The translations under genes and the position numbers were made by a program. A stretch of DNA of 61,108 bases from an uncultured Anaerolineae bacterium (GTDB lineage Bacteria; Chloroflexota; Anaerolineae; JACRMK01). The notes beneath the pieces were generated by a model, which saw only the letters and a program-made list of their open reading frames with translations, did no database searches and was not told the DNA's origin. The stretch is taken from the NCBI GenBank assembly GCA_964509505.1, contig CAZDYP010000001.1, positions 1 through 61,108 of the forward strand, read 5' to 3'. Positions within the stretch are counted from its first letter, which is position 1. Each line of letters starts with the position of its first letter. Of this stretch, positions 3,567-47,733 are shown in pieces.

Positions 3567-3610
3567 AGACCCTAAAGGTTTCTATTCGCCAGAAAAACCT
3601 TATAGGGTCT
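3567..3610. repeat. intergenic hairpin related to the GACCCGAAGGGTT palindrome family
   Basis: AGACCCTAAAGGTTT ... AAACCTTATAGGGTCT; imperfect arms, 13-nt loop; between the merR promoter and the SMP-30 gene. Confidence 0.5.
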
Positions 3611-5846: not shown

Positions 5847-6628
5847 TGCCTAAGAGCGTCTTTATGCAAATGACCTTCATCGGCACTGCGCCAGCGTTGG
5901 CGAGCGCCGACCAAGACCACATCTACATTTTGTTGGATGGTCCCTCAGGCTTCTGGTTGATTGATTGCGGCGGGAGCGCAGCGCATCATCTGTTGAAGTT
6001 GGGTTACGACCCGCTGAATTTGTCGGGTCTCATTCTCACGCACGGTCACGCCGACCACATCTACGGGTTGCCCGTGTTCATTCAAGATATGTGGTTGCGC
6101 GGGCGCAAGCACCCGTTGCCTATCTACGCTAACGAACCAACTATGGCGCGCAGCCGCAAGGCGTTGGAGCTGTTCATGGATAGCGCCCAGTTCAATTTTT
6201 TGGATTTCCGTCTCATACCCGAGACGCCGCAGAATCGCGCGCTAGAAACGCCCGATTTCACGTTGAGCACTGCGCCAACCATCCACTCGTTTCCATCCTT
6301 AGCGCTGCGATTTGATGCGAAACACTCCCGTCGGACGTTGGTGTATAGCGCCGATACGGCGCCATGCCCTAATGTCGTGGCGCTTGCGCGCGGCGCGCAC
6401 ATCTTGGTACATGAAGCGACGGTGCTTGAACCTGTCAGCACGGAGATTGGACACTCGACGCCAATGGAAGCGGCGACGATTGCCAGCGAAGCAGGTGTAG
6501 CGGAGCTGTGGCTCGTGCATTCTAACCCTGCGTTGCATCAAGTAGGCAATCCGCAATTGGCTGAGACGCGCAAAATTTTTGGGAACCCTGTGCATGTCGC
6601 GCGTGACGGCGACAGCGTGATTTTCTAG
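5846..6628 (+). CDS. MBL-fold metallo-hydrolase (RNase Z/beta-lactamase-like)
   Basis: 260 aa; LTHGHADH metal-binding motif; real start may be the internal MTFIGT Met. Confidence 0.8.
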   Translation: MPKSVFMQMTFIGTAPALASADQDHIYILLDGPSGFWLIDCGGSAAHHLLKLGYDPLNLSGLILTHGHADHIYGLPVFIQDMWLRGRKHPLPIYANEPTMARSRKALELFMDSAQFNFLDFRLIPETPQNRALETPDFTLSTAPTIHSFPSLALRFDAKHSRRTLVYSADTAPCPNVVALARGAHILVHEATVLEPVSTEIGHSTPMEAATIASEAGVAELWLVHSNPALHQVGNPQLAETRKIFGNPVHVARDGDSVIF

Positions 6629-6648
6629 GCGGCGTCTCCATCAAAGAG

Positions 6649-6686
6649 AAACCCGCTGCCCTATATGGGGCAGCGGGTTTTGTTTG
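6649..6686 (+). terminator. rho-independent terminator
   Basis: AAACCCGCTGCC / GGCAGCGGGTTT 12-bp stem, 8-nt loop, then TGTTTG. Confidence 0.7.
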
Positions 6687-6782
6687 TAACATAAAGCGAT
6701 GCGAACAGACTATACAAGTGATGCGAAAGTGTTGGACTTCGTTGCGCAATTCAGTTAGAATCACGACTACCAAGGAGGGAGT

Positions 6783-7463
6783 ATGTCTTTCTTCAATTTC
6801 AAGAAACCCGAACTGAGCGATGAACAAAAACGCCGTCTGCCGCCTGGACAGGTGCTGACGGAGAAATGGCCCGTGCTGCATGCGTCGTACATTCCACGTT
6901 TCGACCCGAAGACCTGGGACTTTCGCGTGTGGGGCTTAGTTGAAAAGGAAGTGCGCTGGACGTGGGAGGAATTTAATCAGCTGCCGATGACAACTGTGAA
7001 GTGCGACATCCATTGCGTGACACGCTGGAGTCGCTACGACAATATGTTTGAAGGCGTGCATATCAAAGAAATTATGAAGCACGTCAAGCCGTTGCCCGAA
7101 GCGGCCTATGTATTGCAACATGCCGACCCCGATTACACGACGAACACACCGCTGGATGAACTTGTAGATGACGATGTGATACTCGCGCTCAAATGGAATG
7201 GGCAACCATTGACGCCTGAACATGGTGGTCCCATGCGCCTCGTCCTGCCCAAGCTCTACTTCTGGAAATCATCGAAATGGCTGCGCGGCTTCGAGTTTTT
7301 GTCCGAAGACGAGCCGGGGTTTTGGGAGATGTATGGGTATCACATGCATGGCGATCCATGGCGCTCTGAACGGTTTGGTTCCCCTGCAGACACGTTGCAG
7401 TCTGTAAGAAAGGCGGCGGGCTATGACCCTGAGCCGAAAAGTAAGCGGCGCACAGAGGGTTAA
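6783..7463 (+). CDS. sulfite-oxidase-family molybdopterin-dependent oxidoreductase (YedY/MsrP-like catalytic domain)
   Basis: 226 aa; CVTRWS motif, WNGQPLTPEHGGPMRLVLP, YFWKSSKWL; AAGGAGGG SD. Confidence 0.7.
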   Translation: MSFFNFKKPELSDEQKRRLPPGQVLTEKWPVLHASYIPRFDPKTWDFRVWGLVEKEVRWTWEEFNQLPMTTVKCDIHCVTRWSRYDNMFEGVHIKEIMKHVKPLPEAAYVLQHADPDYTTNTPLDELVDDDVILALKWNGQPLTPEHGGPMRLVLPKLYFWKSSKWLRGFEFLSEDEPGFWEMYGYHMHGDPWRSERFGSPADTLQSVRKAAGYDPEPKSKRRTEG

Positions 7464-7524
7464 AGTGATAACGGACGATTAAGTGATAGTTAGGTTTCAG
7501 CTCCGCACACATTCTACCCGACTT

Positions 7525-9213
7525 TCACCCTTCAACCCTCTTCGACACCACCTGCGCCCCTGTCGGCCCGCTCACCCATCCGCCGAATATCGCAGAGAAC
7601 TTGCCCGCGTCGCCGCCGGCGACGACGAGGTGGATGTTGTTGGGCGACGCGAATTTGGGAATGCGTTGGTTTAATTGTTCGTTGGTGAGTTGGTTCGCAT
7701 GTTGCACGCCAAAGCGTTGCGGCGGGATGCCTTCGCCGCAATCGTCATCGCGCAAGAGTTCGCGCAACGGACGCGCCGTTGCCTCTTGAATACGATTGCG
7801 AATGTTGGCTTTCGTCCAGCCGTCGCGTTTCAACGTCTCGACATGCTCAGGACAAATCACGAGCATCACATCGCCGTAGTTGTGCAGCTTCGGATGCCAG
7901 CAACTTTCGAGCGCGAGCCCGAAACTCGTGGCGAGCGCGCGGGCGGTGCGCGAGAGCTGGTCGGCGATGCCGCGCGGCCCTTCAAGCGCGAACACCGTCA
8001 CAACATTCTCTTCTTTTTTGAAACCCCGCTCCACGTGCAACGGCTCCCACACACTCACTTCCTCGTTCTCGGCAAAGCACAGCCCAAACTTCGCGGGTGT
8101 GCCAAGCGCTGAACGCTCGACGCCGCCAGGCTTCGCGCCGCCGACGTTAGCCAGCGTCAGCTTGAGCGCGCGTCCAATCGTCGCGTTAGCGCGATTGCCA
8201 TGTCCCAACGCATTCAGTCCCGCATTCATGCCAATGCGCTGACGAATGGGCCCGTTGACGACGATGACGGGCGTCGCGCCCCACGTTGTCGCGTTGACGC
8301 CGTGGATGTTGAACTCGTCGGTGCAAACCGCTTCCAGCGCGGCGATGACGACGGGCAGATACTCTGGCTTACAACCCGCCATCACCGCGTTGATGGCGAC
8401 CTTCTCAACGGTGGCGGGCGCCAGGTTCGGCGGCACAATTGCCACCACATCTTGCGGATGGCGCGTTGTGCCTTGCAACATACGCAACACACGCTCAGGT
8501 GTTGGTGGCACGACGGGCAAGCCATCGGTCAAGCCTTGCGCAAACATGAACTCGAACTCGTCGTCGGCTGATGCAATCTCGATGCGGCGCGCACGCAATG
8601 GACTGTCTTCCGCTTCAGCCTGCAATCGTTCTACGATGCCGGGCTCAACAGACTTTGAGCCACAGCCCGGGCGCCAATCGGGGAGAGTGTTCCAGTCAAT
8701 ACTGATATTACGTGCTGGTGTCATTGCGAGCGTTTTTTGCGAAGCAATCTCCGTGCTGTCTGAGGGAGATGGCTTCGCTTCGCTCACCATGACTGTGTCG
8801 CGTGAGTTGATCGGAATACTGACTACTGAATACTGAATACTGGCTACTAACGATTGCCACTCGTCTTTGCGATAGCCGATGAGGCGGCGCAGCTCGTGTC
8901 CTTGTGCGTCGGCGAGGATGAGGGTCGGCACGGTTTCGATAGCGTAACGATATGACACATGCAACGCGGTGTCATCGAGTATTGGCAACGTGAGGTGATG
9001 ACGCTCGATGAGTACGTCGTTGCTTTCTTGTCCAACGCACCAGATGTTGACTGCGTCGCCATACGCGCGGTGCATGGCTTCGATGAGCGGCAGCGTGAGG
9101 TTGCACGTCTGACAATCTTCGCGGACGAAGCAGAGGAGCGTGGGGCGGGTAGTGGGGAAGGTGCATGATTGCCCTTGAAGGTCATTGAGAGTGAATGTGG
9201 GAAGTGTAGTCAT
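7525..9213 (-). CDS. fusion ORF: N-terminal thioredoxin-like domain (CQTC) + repeat-derived linker + ~370-aa conserved domain of unknown function
   Basis: 562 aa. N-terminal ~130 aa is TlpA-like (FVREDCQTCNL). The linker is encoded by heptamer repeats and a 74-nt palindrome. C-terminal domain carries DGLPVVPPTPERV and AINAVMAGCKPEYLPVV. Confidence 0.6.
   Translation of the reverse strand: MTTLPTFTLNDLQGQSCTFPTTRPTLLCFVREDCQTCNLTLPLIEAMHRAYGDAVNIWCVGQESNDVLIERHHLTLPILDDTALHVSYRYAIETVPTLILADAQGHELRRLIGYRKDEWQSLVASIQYSVVSIPINSRDTVMVSEAKPSPSDSTEIASQKTLAMTPARNISIDWNTLPDWRPGCGSKSVEPGIVERLQAEAEDSPLRARRIEIASADDEFEFMFAQGLTDGLPVVPPTPERVLRMLQGTTRHPQDVVAIVPPNLAPATVEKVAINAVMAGCKPEYLPVVIAALEAVCTDEFNIHGVNATTWGATPVIVVNGPIRQRIGMNAGLNALGHGNRANATIGRALKLTLANVGGAKPGGVERSALGTPAKFGLCFAENEEVSVWEPLHVERGFKKEENVVTVFALEGPRGIADQLSRTARALATSFGLALESCWHPKLHNYGDVMLVICPEHVETLKRDGWTKANIRNRIQEATARPLRELLRDDDCGEGIPPQRFGVQHANQLTNEQLNQRIPKFASPNNIHLVVAGGDAGKFSAIFGGWVSGPTGAQVVSKRVEG
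8720..8793. repeat. 74-nt nested palindrome (GTCATTGCGAGCG ... GCAATCTCC family), copy inside an ORF
   Basis: Arms GTCATTGCGAGCG/CGCTCACCATGAC and GCGAAGCAATCTCC/GGAGATGGCTTCGC; translated in frame as SEAKPSPSDSTEIASQKTLAMT. Confidence 0.7.
8814..8848. repeat. heptanucleotide tandem repeat (5 x NNNTACT) inside an ORF
   Basis: GAATACT GACTACT GAATACT GAATACT GGCTACT; translated as VASIQYSVVSIP. Confidence 0.7.
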
Positions 9214-9235
9214 CGTATAAAAAGCCTTGTGAGAA

Positions 9236-11755
9236 TTATTGTAATCCCTTCTCCTTCGCCCACTGTCGCACCTGTGAGCGCGCCGTGAAGCCTAACTTGT
9301 TGAAGATGTTGCTGACGTGCGTCTCAATCGTGCGTTCACCCAACACCAACTTCTCGGCGATCTCGCGGTTGCTCAGTCCTTGCCCGACGAGCGCGGCGAC
9401 TTCACGCTCGCGCGCGGTCAAGCCACCTACAGACCCGAAGGGTTTGGCAAACCCTTCGGGTCTCTCTGGAACTTGCAACAACTCCGCTTCGGCGAGTGCT
9501 TGGCGCAATGTCAACTTGCTTCCCGCTTCCCACGCGACGTTGAACGCTTCGTCGCCCAGTTGCGTTCGCAATGCCTCACGCTCGCGCTCAAATTCGGGGC
9601 GATCATCAGGTGTGATGACTCTATAAACGAATGAGTGTCGTGTGTTCACTGTACTGAGCCAGCGCGCTGCATTCTGCCCTTGTCCAACCACACGCGCCAG
9701 CGCGGCAAATCCCAACAGACAATGTGCTAATGGAAATGTAGTTTCCGACTTACGTGCTAACACCAGCGCTTCTGTGAGATGTAGGCGTGCTTCCCTGTAA
9801 TGCCCTTCAGTCGCCGCGACTCGTCCCAACGCAACGAATATATTATCGGTGCCTATGGGATTGTCCAGTTTGTCTCGGATTGCCAGTCCCTCTTCCAGCC
9901 ATTGTCGCGCCCGCGCGTAATCCCCTTGCACGCGCGCTGCTTCTCCAAGCATGTAGGACGCATTCGAGATCAGGAGATCATAACCTCCTTCCCGCGCCCG
10001 CGCCAGCAGGTCTGCAAAAATGGCTTGTCCTGCCGGATAATTTCCTGTATGGTAATCCAGTGAGCCAAGCGCCATGAGTGAGACATAGATTTGAGCAACG
10101 TCACCCGACTCGCGCGCTAAGCCAACGCTCTCATCTAAGAGGACACGCGCCGTGGCGAGGTCGCCCTGTCTCCCAACAGCAAGGGCTTGTGCAACCAAGG
10201 TGCTCGCCAAAAAGCTCTTATGCCCCGTTTGTCGCAAGAGCGACAGACTACGCTCGGTGAATGCACGTGCGTTGGGCATGTCACCTTGCATAAACATAAA
10301 ATGTGCTGCCAAACGCAAAGCACGACCATACCAGGTGCGCTCTTCGGCGGGCGCGGTAGTGTCAGTTTCAAGCTGTGGATTGAGCGCCAATGCCTGCTCA
10401 AGCCACTGTCGTCCTTCGGCAAGGTGGCTGTACACATGCCATAACACATACACCCTTACACTCAAGCGCAACGCTGCTGCTGGGTCGGGCGTGTTCATCG
10501 CCCAACCCAACGCCGCGCGCAAATTGTCCACCTCGCGCACCAGACGCTGCCACTTATCCAGTTGCACAACAGTCATACTGCTTGGCGCAACGGTTGGGGT
10601 AAACGCTAAGAAGTACGCGAGATGGCGCGAGCGCACCGCCTCACTCTCCCCCGACTCCGCCAACTTCTCCAACGCATACTCACGGATCGTCTCCAACATG
10701 CGATAGCGTGGCGCAACGCTCTCCTCATCCAACAGCACCAACGACTTGTCCACCAGATGCGTCAGCATCTCCAGAATGCCAGTCGGCAGTAGCCAGTCGT
10801 CAGTCGGCAGATGTATCTGCTGGCTACCGACGACTGAGGACTGGCTACTGCACACTGCTTCTGCCGCCTCCAACGTCCACCCGCCCGCGAACACGGACAA
10901 GCGTCGCAACAACACCCGCTCGGGTTCGGATAACAGATTGTGACTCCAATCAATCGCCGCGCGCAAGGTTTGTTGGCGGCGCAACGCGGTGCGGCTGCCG
11001 CCCGTCAGCAAGAGGAAACGACTGTGCAAGCGTTCCGCGACTTGTTCGACGCGCATGGCTTTGACGCGCGCCGCTGCCAACTCAATGGCGAGTGGGATGC
11101 CATCCAAGCGTTGACAGATTTGCGCGACCGCTGCGGTGTTGGCGTCGGTCAACTGAAACGTAGCTTGCACCGCCTGTGCGCGGTCAACAAACAACTGCAC
11201 GGATTCCAACTGCGCGAGCTCGGTAGTTGGAATTTGAGAATTGGGATTTGGGATTTCTAGCGACGGCACTTGAAAGGTGCGCTCACCTGTGATGCCGAGC
11301 GCCTCACGGCTGGTGGCTAAAATTTTCACGTGGGGACAGGCGTGCAACACGCTATCCGCGAATTGCGCGCACGCATCAATCAGATGTTCACAGTTGTCGA
11401 GCAGGAGCAACAACTGTTTGGCGCGCAACCAATCCAGGAGCGTCGCCATGATGGGGCGCCCTGGTTCTTCGCGCACACCCAAGACGGTGGCAACGGTTTG
11501 CGGGACGAGCGCGGGGTCGGCGAGCGGCGCGAGTTCGATGAACCACACGCCATCGGGGAACGCCAGACCCGAAGGGTTTTGGAAACCCTTCGGGTCTGCA
11601 ACCTGCAACGCGAGGCGTGTCTTACCCGTGCCGCCCACGCCCGTGAGCGTGAGCAGATGCGTCGTGGCGAGCAGCTGCTTGAGGTGCGTCATCGCCTGTT
11701 CGCGTCCGATGAAACTGGTCGGTTGAATGGGGAGGTTATGCGGGATCGTTGGCAT
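9236..11755 (-). CDS. large ATP-binding LuxR-family regulator (STAND NB-ARC-like NTPase + TPR + C-terminal LuxR/GerE HTH), copy 1
   Basis: 839 aa; Walker A GVGGTGKTRLA, LLLLDNCEH Walker B, TPR-like middle, C-terminal LTAREREVAALVGQGLSNREIAEKLVLGERTIETHVSNIFNKLG. Confidence 0.85.
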   Translation of the reverse strand: MPTIPHNLPIQPTSFIGREQAMTHLKQLLATTHLLTLTGVGGTGKTRLALQVADPKGFQNPSGLAFPDGVWFIELAPLADPALVPQTVATVLGVREEPGRPIMATLLDWLRAKQLLLLLDNCEHLIDACAQFADSVLHACPHVKILATSREALGITGERTFQVPSLEIPNPNSQIPTTELAQLESVQLFVDRAQAVQATFQLTDANTAAVAQICQRLDGIPLAIELAAARVKAMRVEQVAERLHSRFLLLTGGSRTALRRQQTLRAAIDWSHNLLSEPERVLLRRLSVFAGGWTLEAAEAVCSSQSSVVGSQQIHLPTDDWLLPTGILEMLTHLVDKSLVLLDEESVAPRYRMLETIREYALEKLAESGESEAVRSRHLAYFLAFTPTVAPSSMTVVQLDKWQRLVREVDNLRAALGWAMNTPDPAAALRLSVRVYVLWHVYSHLAEGRQWLEQALALNPQLETDTTAPAEERTWYGRALRLAAHFMFMQGDMPNARAFTERSLSLLRQTGHKSFLASTLVAQALAVGRQGDLATARVLLDESVGLARESGDVAQIYVSLMALGSLDYHTGNYPAGQAIFADLLARAREGGYDLLISNASYMLGEAARVQGDYARARQWLEEGLAIRDKLDNPIGTDNIFVALGRVAATEGHYREARLHLTEALVLARKSETTFPLAHCLLGFAALARVVGQGQNAARWLSTVNTRHSFVYRVITPDDRPEFEREREALRTQLGDEAFNVAWEAGSKLTLRQALAEAELLQVPERPEGFAKPFGSVGGLTAREREVAALVGQGLSNREIAEKLVLGERTIETHVSNIFNKLGFTARSQVRQWAKEKGLQ
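9432..9464. repeat. 33-nt palindrome of the GACCCGAAGGGTT family, in frame in LAL-1 linker
   Basis: AGACCCGAAGGGTTT-GGC-AAACCCTTCGGGTCT; translated ERPEGFAKPFGSV just before the LuxR HTH. Confidence 0.8.
10779..10850. repeat. heptamer-built inverted repeat (CAGTAGC/CAGTCGG words) in frame in LAL-1
   Basis: Left arm 10779-10810, right arm 10817-10850; encodes SSQSSVVGSQQIHLPTDDWLLPTG. Confidence 0.7.
11227..11257. repeat. heptamer run (TTGGRAT words) within LAL-1 coding sequence
   Basis: TTGGAAT TTGAGAA TTGGGAT TTGGGAT TTC; encodes EIPNPNSQIPT. Confidence 0.6.
11564..11598. repeat. 35-nt perfect palindrome, in frame after the P-loop of LAL-1
   Basis: CAGACCCGAAGGGTTT-TGG-AAACCCTTCGGGTCTG (16-bp arms); translated ADPKGFQNPSGLA. 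Confidence 0.85.
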
Positions 11756-12783: not shown

Positions 12784-15306
12784 CTAATCTAGTCCCTGCT
12801 CCTTCACCCACCGCCGCACCTCCGCGCGGCGCGTGAAGCCCAACTTGTTGAAGATGCTGCTGACATGCGATTCTACTGTGCGCTCGCCAATGACGAGCGA
12901 TTCTGCGATCTCGCGATTGCTCATGCCTTGTGCGACGAGTGAAGCGACTTCGCGCTCGCGCGCCGTCAACCCACCAAAATCTTGTTTGGCGGTTGGGATT
13001 TGGGGTTTGGGAGTTGGGATTTCTGTAGGTTCGGTGAGCGCGAGCGCGACTGCTTCATCCAACGTCATGCGTCGTCCTGCTTCCCACGCCGCATTGAAAT
13101 CCGCTTCGGAGAATTGCATGCGCACCGTGGCGAGGGTATGCTCTTGTTCACGTTGATTAACAGGCCAACGATACTGACTACCTCTGGCTTCAAGAAAGGC
13201 TTGGATAGCTCCACATAGTCGTGTGGCTCGTTCCAAGTGTCCTCGTGCAGCTCTCACGCTGGCGAGCGTCATCAGGCAGGCGGCCAGGTTTGGAATGTCT
13301 TCCAATTCTTTTGCCAGCACAAGGCTTTCTCTCGCCAACATTTCTGCCCGCGCAGGGTCGCCTTGCTGCACTGCTACCGCCGCCATAAACTGGAGCAATA
13401 CTGCCCGCACGTTTTTGTCTCCCGTTGCACGCTGTAGGGCCAAACCTTCCTCGCCCAACTGTTGCGCCGTGGCGTAGTCGCCCTCAGCCAAAAAAAGACT
13501 CCCTAGTCTACTGAGTGTGCGGGCGATTTGAATTTTGTCACCGAACTCCCGCGCGCGAGTCAAGCCCTGTGCATACCATGAGTGCGCGGCGGCATAATCA
13601 CCTTGAGACTCTGCTACCGACCCTAACCCGAGCAACGATACTACCGTTGTTGCTTTATCACCTAGGGTCCGACCGATAGACAGGCTTTCCTCAAGGTGTG
13701 CTTGTGCTGTTGCGTAGTCGCCGTGCATCCTAAACATATTGCCCAGGAGTCGCAGCGAAAGAGCCATGCCTCGTCTATCTCCAACGTCCCGCGAGATACT
13801 CAATCCCTCTTCACTGTATGAGCGTGCTAAGGCGAGGTCGCCTTGCCGAAAAGCTAATCTGCCAACAGCGATAAGCCCCCTTGCACGCGCGACGGTTTGT
13901 GCTTCCGCTCCGACGTGCGCTAAGGCAGCGGTTAAACGCTCACGTCCTTCACTCACAGGACCGCGTGAAAACCAGAAACTCCACAGCGCCGCTGCCAACC
14001 TCAGGCCCGCAACCGCGTCGCTGCTGTGCAACGCCCAATCCAGCGCCGCTCGGATGTTATCGTACTCCACCTCCAACCGATTGAACCATATCGCTTGCTC
14101 AGGACCTTCTAGTTTCGACTCGGCAGCTTCAGCGAACTGCACGAAAAAGGTGAGATGCCGCTCGCGCACTGGCTCGCTCTCACCTGAAGCCAACAACTTC
14201 TCGCGCGCATATTGCCGCACCGTCTCCAACATTCGGTAGCGTGTCTGTCCCTCAAACTCCTCTGTGATTACAAGCGATTTGTTGACGAGTTGGGTTAGCA
14301 AGTCCAGCACCTCATCAGTAGCCAGTAGCCAGTCGTCAGTAGTCAGATGGGGCTGGCTACTGGTTACTGACGACTGTCTACTGCATACCGCCTCCGCCGC
14401 CTCCAGTGTCCACCCACCCGCGAACACGGAGAGGCGTAACAACAGGGTGCACTCAGGCGCGGTCAACAAACTGTAACTCCAATCAATCGCCGCGCGCAGC
14501 GTTTGTTGGCGCGGCACCGCCGTGCGACTACCGCCCGTCAACAAGCGAAAGCGATCATCCAAGCGCGCTGCAATTTGCTCGACGGAGAGAGCCTTCACAC
14601 GCGCCGCCGCGAGTTCGAGCGCGAGCGGGATGCCATCCAAGCGTTGACAAATCTGCACGACGGCAGCTGCGTTGGCTTCCGTCAACTGGAAATGCGATTG
14701 CACCGCCTGTGCGCGCTCGACAAACAGTTGCACGGATTCCAGTTGCGCGAGCTCAGCCGTTGGGAGTTGGGAATTGGGAGTTGGGAGTTGCAGCGAGGGC
14801 ACTTGAAAGGTTTGTTCACCCGCGATGCCGAGTGCCTCGCGACTCGTGGCTAAAATCTTCACATCGGGGCACGCATGTAACATGGTGTCCGCGAATTGCG
14901 CGCACGCATCAATCAGATGTTCGCAGTTGTCGAGGAGGAGTAACAGAGATTTCGCACGCAACCAATCCACGAGCGTCGCCGTGATGGGACGCCCCTGTTC
15001 TTCGCGCACACCCAAGACCGAGGCGACGGTTTGCGGCACGAGCGAAGGATCAGCGAGTGGCGCGAGCTCGATGAACCACACGCCATCGGGGAACGCCAGC
15101 CCCGAAGGGTTTTGGAAACCCTTCGGGGCTGCAATTTGCAAGGCGAGGCGGGTCTTGCCCGTGCCGCCGACGCCCGTGAGGGTGAGCAGCTGCGTGGTGG
15201 CGAGCAGTTGCTTGATTTGCGCCATCACCTGTTCGCGCCCGATGAAACTCGTCGGTTGGAGGGGAAGATTATGTAAAAGCACGGACCCTCCGCTCACTCT
15301 CGACAT
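12784..15306 (-). CDS. large ATP-binding LuxR-family regulator (STAND NTPase + TPR + LuxR HTH), copy 2
   Basis: Track ORF starts at 15333 inside a heptamer array. ATG at 15306 (MSRVSGGSVLLHNLPLQPTSFIGRE) aligns with the LAL-1 N-terminus. Walker A GVGGTGKTRLA; C-terminal LTAREREVASLVAQGMSNREIAESL. Confidence 0.85.
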   Translation of the reverse strand: MSRVSGGSVLLHNLPLQPTSFIGREQVMAQIKQLLATTQLLTLTGVGGTGKTRLALQIAAPKGFQNPSGLAFPDGVWFIELAPLADPSLVPQTVASVLGVREEQGRPITATLVDWLRAKSLLLLLDNCEHLIDACAQFADTMLHACPDVKILATSREALGIAGEQTFQVPSLQLPTPNSQLPTAELAQLESVQLFVERAQAVQSHFQLTEANAAAVVQICQRLDGIPLALELAAARVKALSVEQIAARLDDRFRLLTGGSRTAVPRQQTLRAAIDWSYSLLTAPECTLLLRLSVFAGGWTLEAAEAVCSRQSSVTSSQPHLTTDDWLLATDEVLDLLTQLVNKSLVITEEFEGQTRYRMLETVRQYAREKLLASGESEPVRERHLTFFVQFAEAAESKLEGPEQAIWFNRLEVEYDNIRAALDWALHSSDAVAGLRLAAALWSFWFSRGPVSEGRERLTAALAHVGAEAQTVARARGLIAVGRLAFRQGDLALARSYSEEGLSISRDVGDRRGMALSLRLLGNMFRMHGDYATAQAHLEESLSIGRTLGDKATTVVSLLGLGSVAESQGDYAAAHSWYAQGLTRAREFGDKIQIARTLSRLGSLFLAEGDYATAQQLGEEGLALQRATGDKNVRAVLLQFMAAVAVQQGDPARAEMLARESLVLAKELEDIPNLAACLMTLASVRAARGHLERATRLCGAIQAFLEARGSQYRWPVNQREQEHTLATVRMQFSEADFNAAWEAGRRMTLDEAVALALTEPTEIPTPKPQIPTAKQDFGGLTAREREVASLVAQGMSNREIAESLVIGERTVESHVSSIFNKLGFTRRAEVRRWVKEQGLD
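12986..13023. repeat. heptamer run (TTGGGNT words) in frame in the LAL-2 pre-HTH linker
   Basis: TTGGCGG TTGGGAT TTGGGGT TTGGGAG TTGGGAT TTC; encodes EIPTPKPQIPTAKQ. Confidence 0.65.
14316..14383. repeat. heptamer-built inverted repeat (CAGTAGC words) in frame in LAL-2
   Basis: 31-nt arms 14316-14346 / 14353-14383, 23 of 31 positions complementary by hand alignment; encodes SRQSSVTSSQPHLTTDDWLLATDE. Confidence 0.7.
14760..14794. repeat. heptamer run (TTGGGAG words) within LAL-2 coding sequence
   Basis: TTGGGAG TTGGGAA TTGGGAG TTGGGAG TTGCAGC; encodes LQLPTPNSQLPT. Confidence 0.65.
15097..15131. repeat. 35-nt perfect palindrome, in frame after the P-loop of LAL-2
   Basis: CAGCCCCGAAGGGTTT-TGG-AAACCCTTCGGGGCTG; differs from the LAL-1 copy by a paired A>C / T>G change that keeps the stem. 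Confidence 0.85.
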
Positions 15307-15312
15307 CAAATC

Positions 15313-15347
15313 TGATGACTGAACACTGAACACTGATTACTGAACAC
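15313..15347. repeat. heptamer run (TGAACAC words) at the LAL-2 5' end / divergent promoter region
   Basis: TGATGAC TGAACAC TGAACAC TGATTAC TGAACAC. Confidence 0.7.
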
Positions 15348-27046: not shown

Positions 27047-27679
27047 ATGATGCAAGAATTGACTATTGCGTTGCCGAAAGGTCGTTTGCTCGAAAAGTCG
27101 TTGCAGACGTTAGCCGCGGCGGGCTTGTCGTTTCCTGACGCACATGCGGATTCACGTCGTTTGATGTTCAACGATACGCGCAAGTGGACGCGCGCCATTC
27201 TCGTCAAGCCTGTGGATGTGGTGACGTATGTTGAGCATGGCGCGGCGGATGTGGGCATCGTTGGCGAAGATGTGGTGCACGAATCGGCGGTGGATGTCTT
27301 GCAACCTTTGACGCTTCCTTTCGGGCAATGTAGAATCGTCGTTGCGGGACGCCCCGACCAGCGCGACCTCAACTTTCGTCTGCTGACGAATTTGCGTGTG
27401 GCGACGAAATATCCGCGTCTGACGCGCACACACTTTTTGCAACGCGGTCTCAGCGCCGAAATCATTGCGTTGAGTGGTTCGATTGAACTGGCGCCCGCCA
27501 TTGGTCTCGCCGACTTGCTGGTGGACGTGGTGGACACGGGGCGCACGCTCAAAGAAAATGGCTTGATCGAGCTTGAAACCATCATGCGCTGTTTTGCCTG
27601 CGTCATCGTCAACCGCGCCAGCCAAGTCATCAAGACCGACAGCATCAACCAATTGCTAGGAGGAATTTCTGATTTTTGA
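27047..27679 (+). CDS. hisG: ATP phosphoribosyltransferase, short form
   Basis: 210 aa; LTIALPKGRLLEKS, VKPVDVVTYVEHGAADVGIVGEDV, VATKYPRLT, LVDVVDTGRTLKENGL. Confidence 0.9.
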   Translation: MMQELTIALPKGRLLEKSLQTLAAAGLSFPDAHADSRRLMFNDTRKWTRAILVKPVDVVTYVEHGAADVGIVGEDVVHESAVDVLQPLTLPFGQCRIVVAGRPDQRDLNFRLLTNLRVATKYPRLTRTHFLQRGLSAEIIALSGSIELAPAIGLADLLVDVVDTGRTLKENGLIELETIMRCFACVIVNRASQVIKTDSINQLLGGISDF

Positions 27680-27708
27680 TTTTGACCCGTAAGCCAAAAT
27701 CAAAAATC
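27671..27708. repeat. perfect 14-bp heptamer hairpin spanning the hisG stop codon
   Basis: GATTTTTGATTTTG (27671-27684), 10-nt loop, CAAAATCAAAAATC (27695-27708); more AAAAATC units run to the next ATG at 27720. Confidence 0.85.
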
Positions 27709-27719
27709 AAAAATCAAAA

Positions 27720-32199: not shown

Positions 32200-32244
32200 A
32201 ATCCCCAATCCCCAATTCCAACCCCCCAATTGGGATTGGGGATT
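32200..32244. repeat. heptamer hairpin (CCCCAAT words) between hisB and hisH
   Basis: AATCCCCAATCCCCAATT ... AATTGGGATTGGGGATT, one-base bulge. Confidence 0.8.
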
Positions 32245-32260
32245 GGGGGGGATTGTTACG

Positions 32261-40317: not shown

Positions 40318-42867
40318 TTACTTGAGGGCTGTTTTGACCAAGCCTCTTTCCAGCGCCCACGAGGCGATTTGTGTGCGCGAATTGAAGCCCAGCTTATTGA
40401 GGATGTGCGCGACGTGCGCCATTACCGTATATTCGCTGAGGACGAGCGTCTCGGCGATCTCGCGGTTAGTTTGGCCCTGTGCGATGAGCGCTGCCACCTC
40501 GTGTTGGCGGGCGGTGAGGCCGTCGAAATGTTGTGGCTTGCTCTGTGACGTAGGGGGTGCAGGTGAGGCGTCGGCGGCTTGGGGTGTTTGAGGTTCACTG
40601 AGCGCGTAAGCCACGACTTGCTCCAGTGTCAGTGCTTGACCTTCGGCGTAATACCGCGCAAACGTCGTCGGCGTCAGTGCGGCGCGCGCAGCGGCGAGGT
40701 GGCGGTCGTAGCTGGAACGGAAGTGATCCTGAGGCGGCAAGACCTCATCCAACGGTAAGCCTACGACCTCGATTGCGCCGATGAGCTGCGCGGCGCGGCG
40801 TGCATCCTTGTATGTCAGCGCAACGCTACACAGGCTAGTGAGAATTAAGACGATGCCGACTTTTTCCCCTAGCTCATACCGCAAACGGAGACCCTCTCTT
40901 AGAAACGTGAGAGCCTGCTCAGGCTGTCGCTGTAACAGCGCGATGAAACCCAAATTTTGCAGCGCTTCGGCGACGCCGTCGTTGTAACCAATGGCGCGGT
41001 AGAGCGCAAGGCACTCTGTAAAATGGCGTTCAGCCTGTTCGTATAAGCCCTGCATCCAATAGATGTCGCCCAGCGAGCTGTGCGCGTCGGCTATCCCTTC
41101 GCGATCACCTGCCGCGCGCCGCAATGCCAAGGCTTCTTGCAAATATGTCGTCGCCGTCGGGTAATCGCGTGCGCTCATCGCCAAACGCCCCAAATCGCGC
41201 AAGGGACGACTGATGCCCCACGTGTCATCGAGTGCGCGGAAGATGACGAGGCTCTGCTCATAAAGCGTGCGGGCGCGGGTCAGGTCGCCTTGCCGCGCAC
41301 ACACGCGCCCCAAACGGTCAAGCGCGTAAGCATAGGTCCAGCGGTCGCCTACCTGCTCCGCTTTGACGATACATTGCTCGAATGAGCTGCGCGCTGCCTC
41401 GAGATCTCCCTGAGTCCACGTGATTGTGCCAAGTCCCAACAATGCCTGCGCATAAGCGCGTTGCCAGCCTGGGCCCCTGTTGGAGGCTGGTGTTTGATTG
41501 GCTCGTTGCACCATGCGTTCAAGCCAATGGCGACTATGCTGGAAGTCGCCGCGCAGCTCCCAATACCACCAAAGTACCGCCACCAGTCGCAGGCCGGCTT
41601 CGATGTTGTTTGAATCCAGCGCCCATGCCAGCGCCGCGTTGAAATTGCTGTCGTCGGAGCTGAACCGACCAACCCACACCTCTTTATCTGCCCCACGCAA
41701 ATGCGGCGCGGCTACTTCTATCGCCGTCACGCAATAATCCAGCTGGCGCGTACGCCAGGCGGTTTCCTCACCTGCCGCACGCAGCTGCTCCCACCCATAC
41801 TGCCGAATGGGTTCGAGCAACCGATAGCGCGCCTGTCCAAATTTTTCTCGCTCAACTACCAAGATCAACGACTTGTCAATCAGACGAGCGAGCAAATCGA
41901 GCACGTTTGTTTGGGTGACACTTTCATACGTGCAGCTGGCTTCGACGGCCTCTAGCGTGAAACTACCCACGAACACCGACAACCGTCGTAACAACACGCG
42001 CTCAGGTTCGGAGAGCAGCTCGTAGCTCCAATCCAGCGCCGCCCGCAACGTCTGATGACGGGGCACGGCGGCGCGTTGTCCATTGGTCAACAGATAGAAG
42101 ATGTCATCCAACCGCGCCGCAATTTGCTCAACCGCGAGCAACTTGGCGCGCGCCGCCGCCAACTCAATTGCCAACGGTAAGCCATCGAGCCGTTGGCAAA
42201 TCTGCGCTGCGGCCTGCGCGTTATGGGCATGCAATGTGAAGCTGGGCACAACCTCTTTGATGCGCGCCGCCAACAATTGGATGGTCTCGCATTGCGCTAA
42301 TTGCTCAAGGGAAAATTGAGTGGTGGGTGTGGGGAGTTGCAGCGGTGGAACTGACCAAACCGTTTCGCCTTGAATCATCAGAGCCTCGCGGCTGGTCGCC
42401 AGAATCCGCAGCCAAGGACAAGCGCGCAATAGAGCGTCAGTCAATGCCGCGCACGCGGCGATGACGTGTTCGCAGTTGTCCAACACCAACAACACTTCTT
42501 TGTGGCGCAGCGTGTGTGCCAACGTTTCGCGCAAGGGGCGCTCAGGTTGTTCGCGCACGGACAACACGGAGGCAATCGCTTGGGGTAGCAACGCGGGGTC
42601 GGAGAGGGCGGCGAGCTCGACCCACCACACGCCATCGGAGAAAGCGTCGAGCATGTCACTGGCGACGCGCAAGGCGAGGCGGGTCTTACCGATGCCGCCC
42701 GCGCCGGTCAGCGTCAAGAGGCGCGTTTGCGCGAGCAACTGCTTGACCTCGTGGATGGCTTGGGTACGGCCTATGAAGCTGGTGAGCTCGCTAGGGAGGC
42801 TGTGGGGTGGAGTGGCGTCTGCATGAAGTGTGTCCTCAGCGCGCGTATGAGTAAACTGTGTAACCAC
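40318..42867 (-). CDS. large ATP-binding LuxR-family regulator (STAND NTPase + TPR + LuxR HTH), copy 3, lacking the repeat insertions
   Basis: 849 aa; Walker A GAGGIGKTRLA, VLLVLDNCEH, TPR region, C-terminal LTARQHEVAALIAQGQTNREIAETLVLSEYTVMAHVAHILNKLG. Confidence 0.85.
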   Translation of the reverse strand: MVTQFTHTRAEDTLHADATPPHSLPSELTSFIGRTQAIHEVKQLLAQTRLLTLTGAGGIGKTRLALRVASDMLDAFSDGVWWVELAALSDPALLPQAIASVLSVREQPERPLRETLAHTLRHKEVLLVLDNCEHVIAACAALTDALLRACPWLRILATSREALMIQGETVWSVPPLQLPTPTTQFSLEQLAQCETIQLLAARIKEVVPSFTLHAHNAQAAAQICQRLDGLPLAIELAAARAKLLAVEQIAARLDDIFYLLTNGQRAAVPRHQTLRAALDWSYELLSEPERVLLRRLSVFVGSFTLEAVEASCTYESVTQTNVLDLLARLIDKSLILVVEREKFGQARYRLLEPIRQYGWEQLRAAGEETAWRTRQLDYCVTAIEVAAPHLRGADKEVWVGRFSSDDSNFNAALAWALDSNNIEAGLRLVAVLWWYWELRGDFQHSRHWLERMVQRANQTPASNRGPGWQRAYAQALLGLGTITWTQGDLEAARSSFEQCIVKAEQVGDRWTYAYALDRLGRVCARQGDLTRARTLYEQSLVIFRALDDTWGISRPLRDLGRLAMSARDYPTATTYLQEALALRRAAGDREGIADAHSSLGDIYWMQGLYEQAERHFTECLALYRAIGYNDGVAEALQNLGFIALLQRQPEQALTFLREGLRLRYELGEKVGIVLILTSLCSVALTYKDARRAAQLIGAIEVVGLPLDEVLPPQDHFRSSYDRHLAAARAALTPTTFARYYAEGQALTLEQVVAYALSEPQTPQAADASPAPPTSQSKPQHFDGLTARQHEVAALIAQGQTNREIAETLVLSEYTVMAHVAHILNKLGFNSRTQIASWALERGLVKTALK

Positions 42868-43120: not shown

Positions 43121-46100
43121 ATGCGTCCTTTCATCCCTCATTTTATCCACCGCCAATTTGTCGCGCGGCGTCTGCAAGGTCGCTTCCACGCCGTCGCGCT
43201 CTTCGTTGATCTCTCTGGCTTCATGCCACTCACCGAAGCGCTGATGCAGCACGCAAAGGATGGCGCGGAAATTTTGACCGACGCGCTCAATCACATTTTC
43301 ACTCAGCTCGTGCATGAAGTCTATGCGCGCGGCGGCTTCATCTCCAATTTCGCGGGCGATGCGTTCACGGCGTTGTTTCCCTTGAATGCCAAGCAAGCGG
43401 CGCCACACGCGACACGCACTGCGTTCTTCGTGCAAGCGTTCTTTGCAAAGCATCATACCCTACATACGAAGTATGGCGCTTTCGAGTTGGGTGCGAAGTG
43501 CGGCCTCGCAGTGGGCGATGTTCAGTGGGGCATTCTCGGCGAGCAAGACCGCTACACCTATTTCTTTCGCGGCGAGGCAATAGATGCTTGCGCGACGGCG
43601 GAGCATCACGCAGAGCGCGGCGAGATTGTCGTAGAGCAAGCAGTGTGGTCACGGTTGGGCGACGCAGCGCAAACTGAACCGATACCCAACACGCCTTATC
43701 ACAAACTCGTCGCGGATCAAAACGCGTTGCCAACCAAGCGTATTCGCCCCCCAGTACTCAACCATGATACCCTCGCGCGCTTCGTCTTGCCCGAAATCAT
43801 TGACCTGACTGCGCCTGCGGAGTTCCGTGAGGTGTGCAGTATTTTTATCTCCATTGAACAAACCGCGAACCATGAGGACTTTCATGCGTTCATCATCATG
43901 CTCAGGGCGTTGGTTGCGCAACATGGCGGCTATTTCAATCGCTTGGACTTCGGCGATAAGGGTGCAGTGGTGTTGGTGTTGTTTGGCGCGCCCATCGCGC
44001 ATGAGAATGACATAGAACGTGCAGTGAATTTCTTGTTGGCTTTGCAACAGTCACCGATTGCGGTGCGTTGGCGTGCAGGCTTGACAGTCGGCGCGGCGTA
44101 TGCAGGCATCATGGGTGGCAGGGAGCGTTGTGAATATACGGCGATGGGCGATGTGGTGAACTTGGCAGCCCGTTTTATGACACAAGCGTCGTGGAGTGAT
44201 GTGTGGGTCAGTGAAGCCGTGCAGGAACGCTTGCGCCACACACATCACTGGGCGGCGATAGGCAGCTTCTCTTTCAAAGGCGTGAGCAAGCCGATACCCG
44301 TCTATCGCCTAACGGGACAACAGGAGCATGTCGCGCGCGAGTTTTACACAGGCGAGTTGGTGGGGCGCGAAGCAGAGCTCGTGCAGTTGGAAACATTTGT
44401 CCAACCGATCCTAGACCCGAAGGGTTTTGGAAACCCTTCGGGTCTCGCGCGGTTCGCCGGCATCTTGTACCTTTACGGCGAAGCGGGCATGGGCAAGGGC
44501 CGCCTCGCGCATGAGTTTCGGCAACGCCTGACGCGCGCTTATGCGGTCAGTTGGTTCGTCTGCCCCGCCGAAGAAATTTTGCGTCAATCGCTCAACCCCT
44601 TCAAGTATTTTCTCCGCAACTACTTCGGGCAATCGGTCACGCACACACCCGCCGAGAATCGTAAGCGCTTCGACGCGCAATTGCAAAGCGTCATCGCGCG
44701 CTTGCCCGCGGCTCATCCTGACACACCTATGCTGCGTCACGAGCTGGAGCGCACCCGCTCGTTCTTGGGCGCGTTGGTCAATTTGCATTGGGACGATTCG
44801 CTCTACGCGCAAGTCGAGCCGCAACTGCGCTTTGAGAACACGCTCGATGCGGTCAAGCAGTTGTTGAAGGCGGAGAGTTTGCTGCAACCCGTCGTTCTCG
44901 TCGTAGAAGACACGCACTGGCTCGACGCCGATTCGCAGGCGTTGCTCACCATGTTGACGCGCAACATCGCCGCGTATCCCATCGCCATCCTGTGCCTCAG
45001 TCGCTATCAAGACGATGGGCGTCCCTTCGCGTTGCCCGTCGCGCCAGAGACGCCGCAGCAAACGCTCGACTTGAATCGCCTATCGCCCGATGGCTTGCGT
45101 GCGTTGGCGTCGCAAACGCTACGAGGCGCGGTGAGCGCGGCGCTGGTGGATTTTCTGGCGGAGAAGACCAACGGCAACCCGTTCTTGGTCGAGCAATTGT
45201 GTCAGCATTTGCGCGAGCGCACGTGGCTCACAACTGATGCGACAGGCGCGTACACCTTGTTGGGAACTCACACCGCCGAAGTGCCAGTCACCATCGGCGC
45301 GGTGTTGATTGCGCGTCTCGACCGCTTGACGATGGAGGTCAAAGCGGTGGTGCAAACGGCGGCGGTGTTGGGGCGTGAGTTCGAAGCGCAAATTCTCTCG
45401 AGGATGTTGAGCGATGACGTGCGGGTGACGGAGAAAATCAAACAAGCAGAAACAGAGGCAATCTGGTCGGCGCTGAACGAGATTCGCTACATCTTCCGAC
45501 ATGCGCTGTTGCGTGATGCCGCTTATGATATGCAGCTGCGCGCCCGTTTGCGCGACTTGCATCGGCTGGCGGGCGAAGCGTTTGAGCAAGTGTATGCTGA
45601 TGACTTAGATAGCCATTACGCGGACTTGGCGTATCACTTTGAGCAAGCGCAAGTGACCATGAAGGCGTTGGTCTATTTGGGGCAAGCAGGCGACAGCGCG
45701 AAAGCGGATTACCATAATCAAGCGGCGTTGGATTTCTACGCGCGTCGGATGACGTTGATGGTTGAGACGGAACAACCGATGGGGTGGCGCATCGCCACAC
45801 GCCTGAAGCAAGGCGAGGTGTTGGAGCTCATCGGCAAATGGAACGAGGCAGATGCGACGTACCATGAAGCGTTGCAGTGGGCGGTGCAAGCTAATGAGCG
45901 TGAATGGCAAGCGCGGGCGCATTACGCGCTCTGCGAATTGTTGCGGCGTAGAGGCAAATACGTCGAGTCACTCGTCTCCGCTGAGCAAGCATTGGTCTTG
46001 TTTGCAGCAATAGGCAACTCACAAGGCTTAGCACAAACATTTGGCACATTCGGTACGATTGCACGACAGCAGGGTAATTATGCGCAGGCAATGCAATGGT

Positions 46101-47011
46101 ATGAGCGACAACTGAAACTCGGTGAAGCGTTGAACGATCAAGCGGGGATTGCGGCAGCGATGGGGAGCATGGGCAACGCCTATCAAGAGCAAGAGCAACA
46201 TACGCAAGCGCTGACTTGCCATGCGCATCGCCTGCGCTTCTGTGAAGGACTCGGTGACAAACGGGGTATCGCTTCGGTCTTGAGCAATTTGGGGAATGTG
46301 CATGTCAGTGCGGGCGATTACGCACAGGCACTGGCGTGCTATACGCGTGGTTTACAACTCAGCGAAGAACTTGGCGACAAGCGCGTGATAGCTGTGACCG
46401 TCGGTAATTTGGGTGTTGTGTCTGAGGACTTAGGCGATTACGAGCAAGCCATGACGTATTACACGCGCAGTTTGCAAATTGGCGAGGAACTTGGTAATCA
46501 ACGCACCATCTCGATTGCCATCGGCAATCAAGGGAACATCCATCAGTTCAAAGGCAATTATCCACAAGCGCTCGTTTGTTACGATCAGGCGTTGGCTATC
46601 GCCCAGACCATTGGACTGAGATATTATGTGGCTGGCTATTTAATTGAAAAGGCTAGAGTCTTATTCAAACTGAACCAGCTGTCCGAAGCGCAGCGGATGG
46701 CTCAAGAGGGACTGACGCTTGCCAGAGCAGTCAATTTTCCTGACTACATTTTCAAAGGGCAGGTCTTGGCGACGAGCATTGCGTGGGCGCAAGGACAACG
46801 CATCGAAGCCACGCAACAATTGAGCGAACTCTTGGCGCAAACGCAAGCAAGTGGTGAGCAAGCGGACCTGCATTATGAGTTGTGGCACATGGCAGGCACA
46901 GAGGCGCATCGCGCGCAGGCGCTGGCTCTGTATCAGGCGTTGTTGCAACGCACGCCGAAGTTTGAGTGGAAGCAAAGGGTAGAGGAGTTGCAAGTGGCGA
47001 ATAGCGAATAG
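43121..47011 (+). CDS. adenylate/guanylate cyclase (two class III cyclase-homology domains) fused to a STAND AAA ATPase and TPR repeats
   Basis: 1296 aa; FVDLSGFMPLTE and IFISIEQ cyclase cores, GDVVNLAARF, Walker A GEAGMGKGRLA, VVLVVEDTHWLD, long TPR array (GNxxxxxGDYxxAL repeats). Confidence 0.85.
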   Translation: MRPFIPHFIHRQFVARRLQGRFHAVALFVDLSGFMPLTEALMQHAKDGAEILTDALNHIFTQLVHEVYARGGFISNFAGDAFTALFPLNAKQAAPHATRTAFFVQAFFAKHHTLHTKYGAFELGAKCGLAVGDVQWGILGEQDRYTYFFRGEAIDACATAEHHAERGEIVVEQAVWSRLGDAAQTEPIPNTPYHKLVADQNALPTKRIRPPVLNHDTLARFVLPEIIDLTAPAEFREVCSIFISIEQTANHEDFHAFIIMLRALVAQHGGYFNRLDFGDKGAVVLVLFGAPIAHENDIERAVNFLLALQQSPIAVRWRAGLTVGAAYAGIMGGRERCEYTAMGDVVNLAARFMTQASWSDVWVSEAVQERLRHTHHWAAIGSFSFKGVSKPIPVYRLTGQQEHVAREFYTGELVGREAELVQLETFVQPILDPKGFGNPSGLARFAGILYLYGEAGMGKGRLAHEFRQRLTRAYAVSWFVCPAEEILRQSLNPFKYFLRNYFGQSVTHTPAENRKRFDAQLQSVIARLPAAHPDTPMLRHELERTRSFLGALVNLHWDDSLYAQVEPQLRFENTLDAVKQLLKAESLLQPVVLVVEDTHWLDADSQALLTMLTRNIAAYPIAILCLSRYQDDGRPFALPVAPETPQQTLDLNRLSPDGLRALASQTLRGAVSAALVDFLAEKTNGNPFLVEQLCQHLRERTWLTTDATGAYTLLGTHTAEVPVTIGAVLIARLDRLTMEVKAVVQTAAVLGREFEAQILSRMLSDDVRVTEKIKQAETEAIWSALNEIRYIFRHALLRDAAYDMQLRARLRDLHRLAGEAFEQVYADDLDSHYADLAYHFEQAQVTMKALVYLGQAGDSAKADYHNQAALDFYARRMTLMVETEQPMGWRIATRLKQGEVLELIGKWNEADATYHEALQWAVQANEREWQARAHYALCELLRRRGKYVESLVSAEQALVLFAAIGNSQGLAQTFGTFGTIARQQGNYAQAMQWYERQLKLGEALNDQAGIAAAMGSMGNAYQEQEQHTQALTCHAHRLRFCEGLGDKRGIASVLSNLGNVHVSAGDYAQALACYTRGLQLSEELGDKRVIAVTVGNLGVVSEDLGDYEQAMTYYTRSLQIGEELGNQRTISIAIGNQGNIHQFKGNYPQALVCYDQALAIAQTIGLRYYVAGYLIEKARVLFKLNQLSEAQRMAQEGLTLARAVNFPDYIFKGQVLATSIAWAQGQRIEATQQLSELLAQTQASGEQADLHYELWHMAGTEAHRAQALALYQALLQRTPKFEWKQRVEELQVANSE
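44413..44445. repeat. 33-nt palindrome of the GACCCGAAGGGTT family, in frame in the cyclase-STAND gene
   Basis: AGACCCGAAGGGTTT-TGG-AAACCCTTCGGGTCT; translated LDPKGFGNPSGLA just upstream of the Walker A motif. Confidence 0.85.
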
Positions 47012-47655: not shown

Positions 47656-47668
47656 CGCAATAACAGTA

Positions 47669-47733
47669 GCGAATGGCGAATAGCGAATGGCGGATGGTTT
47701 TCAACTATCCGCCATCGGCTATCTGCCATCGGC
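47669..47733. repeat. heptamer hairpin between convergent toxin and giant genes (bidirectional terminator candidate)
   Basis: GCGAATGGCGAATAGCGAATGGCGGATGG, loop TTTTCAACT, ATCCGCCATCGGCTATCTGCCATCGGC; about 21 of 27 arm positions pair, one of them a G-U; right arm reaches the giant gene stop. Confidence 0.7.

Follow-up and report, generated by a model that had tools for sequence, protein, structure and literature searches.

How does a perfect DNA palindrome come to be translated, in frame, right after the P-loop of a signalling NTPase? This question is raised by contig CAZDYP010000001.1 (positions 1 to 61,108) of an uncultured Anaerolineae bacterium of the phylum Chloroflexota, a stretch of 61,108 nt that is called the window here. 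An earlier note on this DNA, made from the sequence alone, had pointed to a 35-nt palindrome at 11564-11598, inside the gene of a STAND/LuxR regulator. Our analysis indicates that this palindrome is most probably a copy of a mobile element of the repetitive extragenic palindromic (REP) type, which is widespread in Chloroflexota and whose partners are REP-associated tyrosine transposases (RAYTs) of the HUH-Y1 superfamily that form a divergent clade.

The palindrome is perfect, as had been claimed: in CAGACCCGAAGGGTTT-TGG-AAACCCTTCGGGTCTG, two arms of 16 nt with 100% complementarity enclose a loop of 3 nt. It lies in open reading frame (ORF) A (9236..11755, minus strand), which encodes an 839-aa regulator with a STAND NTPase module (AAA_22/NB-ARC-like), TPR repeats and a GerE domain, and its in-frame reading on the minus strand is ADPKGFQNPSGLA, flanked by GVGGTGKTRLALQV and FPDGVWFIELA. 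Alignment of 123 copies of the family revealed that the conserved unit is 33 nt long (15-3-15), AGACCCGAAGGGTTT-NNN-AAACCCTTCGGGTCT, and that the outermost base pair of the 35-mer is variable. The element proper is therefore the canonical GAA variant with loop TGG at 11565..11597, which is read as DPKGFQNPSGL (residues 54-64 of ORF A) directly after the Walker A helix.

A search allowing up to 3 mismatches recovered exactly four copies in the window (9430-9464, 11564-11598, 15097-15131 and 44412-44446), the number given in the earlier note; 100 dinucleotide-preserving shuffles yielded no copy at all. All four are translated within long STAND/TPR signalling ORFs, in two reading frames. The second copy of ORF A (9431..9463, loop GGC) is read in the other frame, as RPEGFAKPFGS, in a variable linker just ahead of the GerE/LuxR helix-turn-helix (GerE domain, residues 779-832). 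ORF B (12784..15333, minus strand, 849 aa), a paralogue of ORF A with NB-ARC, TPR and GerE regions, carries one copy at 15098..15130, which is read as APKGFQNPSGL (element translation, AAPKGFQNPSGLA) at the site homologous to 11565-11597. The remaining copy (44413..44445, loop TGG) belongs to ORF D (43121..47011, plus strand), a 1296-aa protein with adenylate/guanylate cyclase, AAA_16 and TPR regions; its plus-strand reading, DPKGFGNPSGL (element translation, LDPKGFGNPSGLA), lies between the GRExEL helix and the strand entering the AAA_16 P-loop. The ORF A and ORF B copies at the shared site count as one insertion event, since they occupy the same position in adjacent paralogues with 94% DNA identity there. 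An Rfam scan of the window returned no family at the gathering threshold except one tRNA elsewhere in it, and only chance miRNA-type hairpin matches at E <= 1.

The same palindrome recurs in many other genomes. When one genome per species was scanned with the core pattern CCGAAGGGTTTNNNAAACCCTTCGG, at least 117 stretches matched; among the matches listed, nearly all were in Chloroflexota metagenome-assembled genomes (MAGs; Anaerolineae, Ardenticatenaceae, Caldilineaceae and Thermoflexia), with a few in other bins and at least 11 loci from a single MAG (JACRPR01). In the 123 aligned copies, the outer 4 nt of each arm are more than 90% conserved though not forced by the search pattern, the loop takes 33 different triplets, and nothing is conserved outside the 33-nt unit (AGAC...GTCT), a GTAG or CGTC tag being absent. 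Variants at the same loci include loops of 4-5 nt, common 34-nt copies, stems changed on both sides (CCCTAAGGG/CCCTTAGGG and GGATTT/AAATCC) and an 'inside-out' order of the arms. The last is possible because each arm holds a mini-palindrome, ACCC-GAA-GGGT; the 33-mer can accordingly be read as a minimal doublet, and no long-spacer doublets were seen. The core pattern had no match in viral contigs, and thus there is no sign of a phage vector. The lack of a stop codon in any frame was considered as a special trait and rejected, as by a rough estimate some 40% of random palindromes of like size and G+C share it.

No description of the sequence was found in the literature searched, in line with the earlier note, which was aware of no such case in this kind of genome. 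Full-text searches for the arm sequences returned unrelated primer matches only. In the passages covered of REP surveys that include Anaerolinea and Ardenticatena, copy counts are given and the family is not described, and the mentions of Chloroflexi found there concern GTAG-tagged repeats or bare counts.

The partner transposase came to light only by direct search of the fetched loci with E. coli RayT, which matched two ORFs adjoining copies (L113, 3745-4266, and L098, 3507-4148). The NCBIfam model NF047646 (REP_Tyr_transpos) aligns with both over the full length of the model (E = 4.8e-13 and 7.9e-11, respectively), below its curated cut-off (49 bits against 80 for the match at 4.8e-13), and Pfam Y1_Tnp matches weakly, at 14.7 against a cut-off of 23; the HUH motif (NHFHLLV) and the tyrosine motif YIHQNPxKHG are readable in the RAYT-like sequences. 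A homologue search returned 3,255 relatives; JGI gives the name RayT to many of these, and many come from contigs only 1-2 kb long.

Eight RAYT loci (L113, L098 and L126-L131) were inspected at the DNA level. At all eight, family palindromes lie 3-45 nt from a gene end, and on both sides in six. At seven of the eight, the transposase gene itself contains an in-frame palindrome immediately behind the HUH strand (L113, 3957-3989; L098, 3736-3768; L126, 10213-10246; L127, 404-436; L128, 10216-10248; L129, 5213-5245; L131, 5207-5240 and 5462-5498). The internal variant equals the flanking one in five of these seven, with TAAAGG throughout L126 and L131 and CTGACAGG throughout L129. At least 92 of the 113 scorable top homologues have a palindrome-derived two-part peptide after the HUH motif (for example, DPKGFQKPLGS, DLTGLQDLSGL, ETLRVSETLRV or NPKGLGDPSGL), and two or three have none. 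These loci thus have the REPtron arrangement plus an extra internal copy.

The TAAAGG variant links these loci to one more palindrome of the window, AGACCCTAAAGGTTT...AAACCTTATAGGGTCT at 3567..3610, which has a 13-nt loop and imperfect pairing. It had been taken for a degenerate intergenic relative; the intergenic position is correct, whereas the sequence is better described as a sister variant (AGACCCTAAAGGTTT), which also flanks, and lies within, the RAYT genes of L126 and L131. The long loops of this palindrome and of a copy next to a RAYT gene in L130 (5617-5668) have ATTCGCCAGA in common, which may mark a long-loop subfamily.

Where do copies sit in general? Location was analyzed for 119 copies outside the window (117 listed loci) with greedy home-made ORF calls, by which 87.5% of the DNA is ORF. 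The window, with all its canonical copies in genes, suggested a mainly intragenic family. Across genomes, 85 of the 119 copies (71%) are instead intergenic, whereas 14 (~12%) lie deep in ORFs of at least 150 aa and 20 are so close to an ORF end that their assignment is ambiguous. Intergenic copies are found just 3' of genes (median distance to the nearest gene 3' end, 9 nt), and only 3 of 65 stand between divergent genes. No target-site duplication was found: direct repeats in the flanks are no commoner than chance, and no conserved target motif was seen. All-against-all clustering of the ORFs near copies yielded recurrent neighbours that are orthologous sets only, such as rpoD, which is followed by copies of the form ...GGGTCTTTTTTG in genomes with RpoD 54-98% identical. 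At three of these loci (L015, L080 and L101), another palindrome with the same AGAC...GTCT ends, AGACATCGGATTTTT-TGA-AAAATCCGATGTCT, follows rpoD and precedes the element by ~50 nt, which hints at further related families.

Nor are the intragenic copies restricted to NTPase genes, as the window alone had implied. Their hosts elsewhere include a GH2 glycosidase, a VIT-VWA protein, a PPDK-like enzyme, a 3HCDH-AcnX fusion, a histidine kinase, Fpg, FliK, IPMDH, an AhpC-domain protein and RsmF (at the same site in two genomes). In alignments with solved structures, the element shows up as added residues, a net +6 in IPMDH and +13 in MutM/Fpg. Of 18 deep copies, 12 are read in frame F1 (DPKGFxNPSGL), four in F2 (RPEGFxKPFGS) and two in F3 (TRRVxxTLRV), a bias that fits a filter favouring the hydrophilic, turn-forming reading. 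The intragenic load seems to differ strongly between genomes. In L131 (GCA_041738395.1), three family palindromes (6569-6601, 7126-7158 and 9385-9417) lie within the span of a type I restriction HsdR gene (6453-9419), and another (6408-6440) is at the end of a HEPN gene.

In the window, comparison with homologues reveals the segment as an insertion. Relative to ORF C (40318..42867, minus strand), an 849-aa paralogue without the element that serves as the 'empty' comparison and has ASDMLDA at the alignment point, ORF A has a net difference of six codons, exactly as first reported. Among 120 homologues (58-85% identical) of the N-terminal module of ORF A, the element is missing in 118, which read QVAADLLDEFPDGVW, i.e. 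...GKTRLxLQVAADLLDEFPDGVW.... The sole homologue with the element among the 120 is P0001 (85% identical, from the same metagenome), with one wobble change, and P0080 (61% identical) has the variant AGACCTGACGGGTTT-TGA-AAACCCGTCAAGTCT at the ORF A site. In a set of 150 representatives of the ORF D family, the consensus at the site is QPIF-EGR-FAG...GEAGMGKSRL, without the segment; PKGFxNPSGL is missing from 148 of them, many differ in length at this position, and P0249 is the only one with a relative there (a 34-nt TAA variant). Since ORF A and ORF D have closer relatives than P0080 and P0249, these sequences make repeated hits on the same two loops more likely than a single ancient gain. In L120 (232-2613), also from this metagenome, a gene closely related to ORF A is split into three consecutive ORFs (NTPase, TPR and GerE), as a pseudogene or through assembly frameshifts, and its element has one G-T wobble change.

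The structural context agrees with an insertion in a tolerant position. In an AlphaFold2 model of ORF A residues 1-330 (mean pLDDT, the predicted local distance difference test score, of 84), residues 54-69 were modelled as coil between the post-P-loop helix 45-53 and the strand 70-74, with confidence below that of the flanking blocks. Unrelated insertions are present in the same post-Walker-A loop in the homologues P0002, P0011, P0041, P0052 and P0099. The bias towards P-loop-adjacent sites, which had seemed unexplained, is thus best read as a matter of permissive, length-variable loops in large, fast-evolving paralogous genes, because homologues hold unrelated insertions or other family variants at the same two sites. 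These post-Walker-A inserts, such as HLCVRPTGADTQVSPY and SPPLPSQWETSEAQRAGWPGGEG, resemble translations of other repeat families.

The stem itself has kept its pairing. Of the 281 nt aligned around the element, 18 distinguish ORF A from ORF B, and the only two of these inside it form a mirrored complementary pair (AGACCC/GGGTCT to AGCCCC/GGGGCT), for which the odds of coincidence are roughly estimated at ~1%. This change shows that the stem remains paired even within coding sequence. In three orthologous intergenic copies, which follow a gene with products 82-86% identical, 30 of 30 stem bases are kept, and the loops (TGG, CAA and TAG) and flanks differ. Folded as RNA, as the earlier note had proposed, the element gives a very stable hairpin of ~-31 kcal/mol (z ~-5 to -6).

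All of these observations also speak for the strongest rival explanation, namely that the hairpin is a host-functional module selected site by site, as an RNA stabiliser or terminator, a ribosome-pausing signal or a dyad protein-binding site, and that the link with RAYTs is secondary. Further support comes from the element downstream of rpoD, which is found in genomes with RpoD only 54% identical, and from T-runs: 27 of 123 copies, among them those after rpoD, have one behind the stem where the background is 3.4%, an enrichment of about sixfold. However, the intragenic hosts are unrelated, and their copies are in loops and linkers that are missing from most homologues. Selection on structure alone predicts free co-variation of the stem; its sequence is instead the same from class to class, which is what recognition by a cognate transposase would lead one to expect. 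The avoidance of divergent, promoter-type intergenic regions is contrary to an operator role, and the element is found at the gene end of every RAYT locus inspected. An intrinsic terminator in particular was rejected for the window copies, which lie inside ORFs, have no T-run and were not called by a terminator scan. Host function as the primary explanation therefore appears unlikely.

Less probable still is that the in-gene copies do not go back to independent insertions, and that recombination or gene conversion passed a segment already containing the element from one STAND paralogue to another, with the P-loop association as a by-product. ORF A and ORF B are adjacent, and their 94% DNA identity around the element against 57% protein identity overall suggests exchange of the N-terminal module; P0001 represents a third close copy from the same metagenome. 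Such exchange accounts only for the site shared by ORF A, ORF B and P0001. The C-terminal copy of ORF A is in another frame, that of ORF D belongs to a different domain family, and the variants at the same loops of P0080 and P0249, which are not the nearest relatives of ORF A or ORF D, are different ones. As an explanation of the in-gene copies, we find paralogue exchange quite improbable. Apart from this question, the N-terminal NTPase modules of ORF A and ORF B are ~90% identical, against 57% overall, which suggests module exchange or gene conversion between the two genes.

Two other explanations have practically no standing. That PKGFxNPSGL is an ancestral functional peptide of NTPases with incidental DNA palindromy might be thought from its recurrence after or before P-loops in three window ORFs, and is refuted by its absence from nearly all homologues of both families (the alignment that the earlier note had suggested), by the reading of the same DNA elsewhere as RPEGFxKPFGS and TRRVxxTLRV, and by the intergenic majority of copies. 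An artefactual origin of the palindrome in sequencing or assembly, for instance from an adapter or at a chimeric junction, is refuted as well: hairpin adapters can yield perfect short palindromes, but the element occurs in many independent assemblies from different projects, with identical host proteins in three separate metagenome assemblies, always leaves long ORFs open and is nearly confined to one phylum. The use of three frames, the 118 of 120 homologues without the segment and the unrelated genes that carry it show that the palindrome is a repeat at the level of DNA rather than a protein motif.

Family membership, the REPtron association, the insertion relative to homologues, the loop position and the compensatory change are all seen directly in the sequences, and on this basis we propose that the REP-type element behaves as follows. 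The unit is a 33-34-nt hairpin with a fixed 15-bp stem (AGACCCGAAGGGTTT/AAACCCTTCGGGTCT) and a free loop, which a RAYT encoded elsewhere in the genome would recognise in single-stranded DNA and disperse; we infer such RAYT-mediated transposition from the association of the two. Most surviving copies are found a few bases beyond stop codons, where they are probably harmless, and the approximately one-fifth that have a T-run behind them could act as terminators. In-gene copies would pass a selective filter only if their length keeps the frame, if the frame is free of stops and if the site is a surface loop or linker. On this mechanism the window would record three surviving events, one of them later duplicated, in large and fast-evolving STAND/TPR signalling genes, at two loops next to a P-loop and one interdomain linker. 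After insertion, the stem may be kept perfectly paired by selection or by hairpin-templated correction.

Several points weigh against this proposal. The net gains relative to homologues are +6, ~+10, +6 and +13 residues rather than a clean +11, and no exact empty site was recovered from a close orthologue. Neither a target-site duplication nor a conserved target was seen. No RAYT gene was found in the window or in overlapping or neighbouring contigs, and the RAYT-like proteins score below the curated cut-offs of both NCBIfam and Pfam. The presence of all four canonical window copies in genes, against ~12% in the wider sample, is not fully explained by tolerance, and the location statistics rest on greedy ORF calls rather than a trained gene finder. 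In addition, perfect stems at orthologous sites across species could mean a host-level function rather than selfish spread.

We also put forward, tentatively and as something possible rather than probable, that the in-frame copy within RAYT genes is the persistent master or control copy of the family. If so, binding of the transposase to the hairpin in its own gene or mRNA might provide autoregulation, or the internal copy might be a template that matches specificity to the repeat. The family would then have been shaped as 'codable' DNA, with a 33-nt version that is open in every frame and encodes a Gly/Pro-rich turn peptide, because the founding copy always had to be translated; it would thereby be pre-adapted to colonise loops of host proteins, for example beside the P-loops of STAND NTPases.

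How does the element compare with known systems? Rickettsia palindromic elements, the classic in-frame case, to which the palindrome had originally been likened, are selfish palindromic repeats that are found in frame in functional proteins, where they are tolerated at surface positions (cited in PMC3733652). They measure roughly 100-150 bp and are known only from Rickettsia; no cognate transposase is known for them. The likeness holds for the in-frame copies in tolerated loops and linkers of functional proteins. It does not extend to an orphan hairpin: the Chloroflexota element is 33 nt long, phylum-wide and linked to RAYTs, and thus belongs with a different known kind of system. The DNA uptake sequences of Neisseria and the uptake signal sequences of Haemophilus occur as inverted pairs in terminator stems downstream of genes, and are also translated within genes in preferred frames; Kingsford and colleagues (2007, cited in PMC12306157) are said to have described uptake sequences paired as terminators. 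Unlike these sequences, which are mostly single copies, the Chloroflexota half-sites are virtually never alone, and a transposase partner exists. Matches to one arm outside full palindromes were virtually absent from the window and the fetched loci, and an uptake sequence was rejected on this ground. A miniature inverted-repeat transposable element (70-300 bp, with terminal inverted repeats and target-site duplications) was likewise rejected in view of the 33-nt length and the chance level of flanking repeats.

REP sequences and their doublets, the REPINs, are short multi-copy palindromic repeats that are associated with RAYTs, are found for the most part shortly after gene 3' ends and persist at orthologous sites (PMC3116915; PMC5581495; PMC3733652). 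In a REPtron, the HUH-Y1 transposase gene is flanked by its repeat (PMC3733652; PMC5581495), and two REP superfamilies are distinguished by a conserved GTAG or CGTC tetranucleotide tag at one end (PMC3733652). The Chloroflexota family resembles the systems of E. coli (TnpA_REP/RayT) and Pseudomonas (REPINs) in its multiple copies, its location 3' of genes, its persistence at orthologous sites and its repeat-flanked RAYT gene. It differs from them in that the palindrome is perfect (15-3-15) and lacks the unpaired tag, the unit is a single hairpin rather than a long REP doublet, and the RAYT clade is divergent, with an in-frame copy after the HUH motif within nearly every transposase gene; a copy in this position is not described in the literature searched. 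IS200/IS605 elements also combine an HUH-Y1 transposase with hairpin recognition and the absence of target-site duplication (PMC6006769), and the Chloroflexota system is like them in its transposase superfamily, in its presumed recognition of hairpins and in the lack of target-site duplication; its mobile unit, however, has no transposase of its own, and no conserved target tetranucleotide is found beside the copies. Intragenic REPs of the GTAG and CGTC superfamilies are translated, being entirely enclosed by ORFs of known proteins, in varied hosts and twice in some genes (Di Nocera et al., 2013, PMC3733652). The Chloroflexota copies are likewise translated within ORFs of varied hosts, with one gene hit twice, whereas they belong to a different, tag-less sequence family from another phylum, different variants of which have hit the same two STAND NTPase loops across genomes.

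Thus, REP/RAYT systems, REPtrons and intragenic translated REPs are already known (PMC3116915; PMC3733652). Three features appear to be new: the phylum-wide conservation of a perfect 15-3-15 family without a tag, the in-frame copy that members of a divergent RAYT clade almost always have within their own gene, and the fact that different variants have repeatedly colonised the same two NTPase loops. A REP/RAYT system is hereby defined for Chloroflexota, a large and mostly uncultured phylum. The repeat is easily recognised, and it affects gene calling, protein alignments and assembly. Odd short peptides in these proteomes, such as DPKGFxNPSGL, are repeat scars rather than motifs. The copies in genes provide a natural 'insertion scanning' of loops in STAND NTPases and enzymes that tolerate ~11 extra residues, and a REP kept in frame within its own transposase gene over a large clade offers a handle on the long-term matching of RAYT and repeat.

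Other repeats were also noticed in the window. ORF A contains a second, unrelated in-frame palindromic insert at 10780-10857 (translated SSQSSVVGSQQIHLPTDDWLLPT), which has a counterpart at ~14317-14383 in ORF B and is absent from the paralogue at 40318-42867, where there is a 16-aa gap. This insert consists of AGTAGCCAGTC-like words in inverted order, with 27-nt arms that are 89% complementary; the window contains 10 occurrences of the word where 0.41 would be expected, and some of these lie elsewhere, at 8838, 16012 and 57830-57847. Additional intergenic inverted repeats, at 47667-47735, 32210-32249 and 27665-27714, are built of heptamer-like units (GCGAATG/GCGAATA, CCCCAAT-type and GATTTTT-type).

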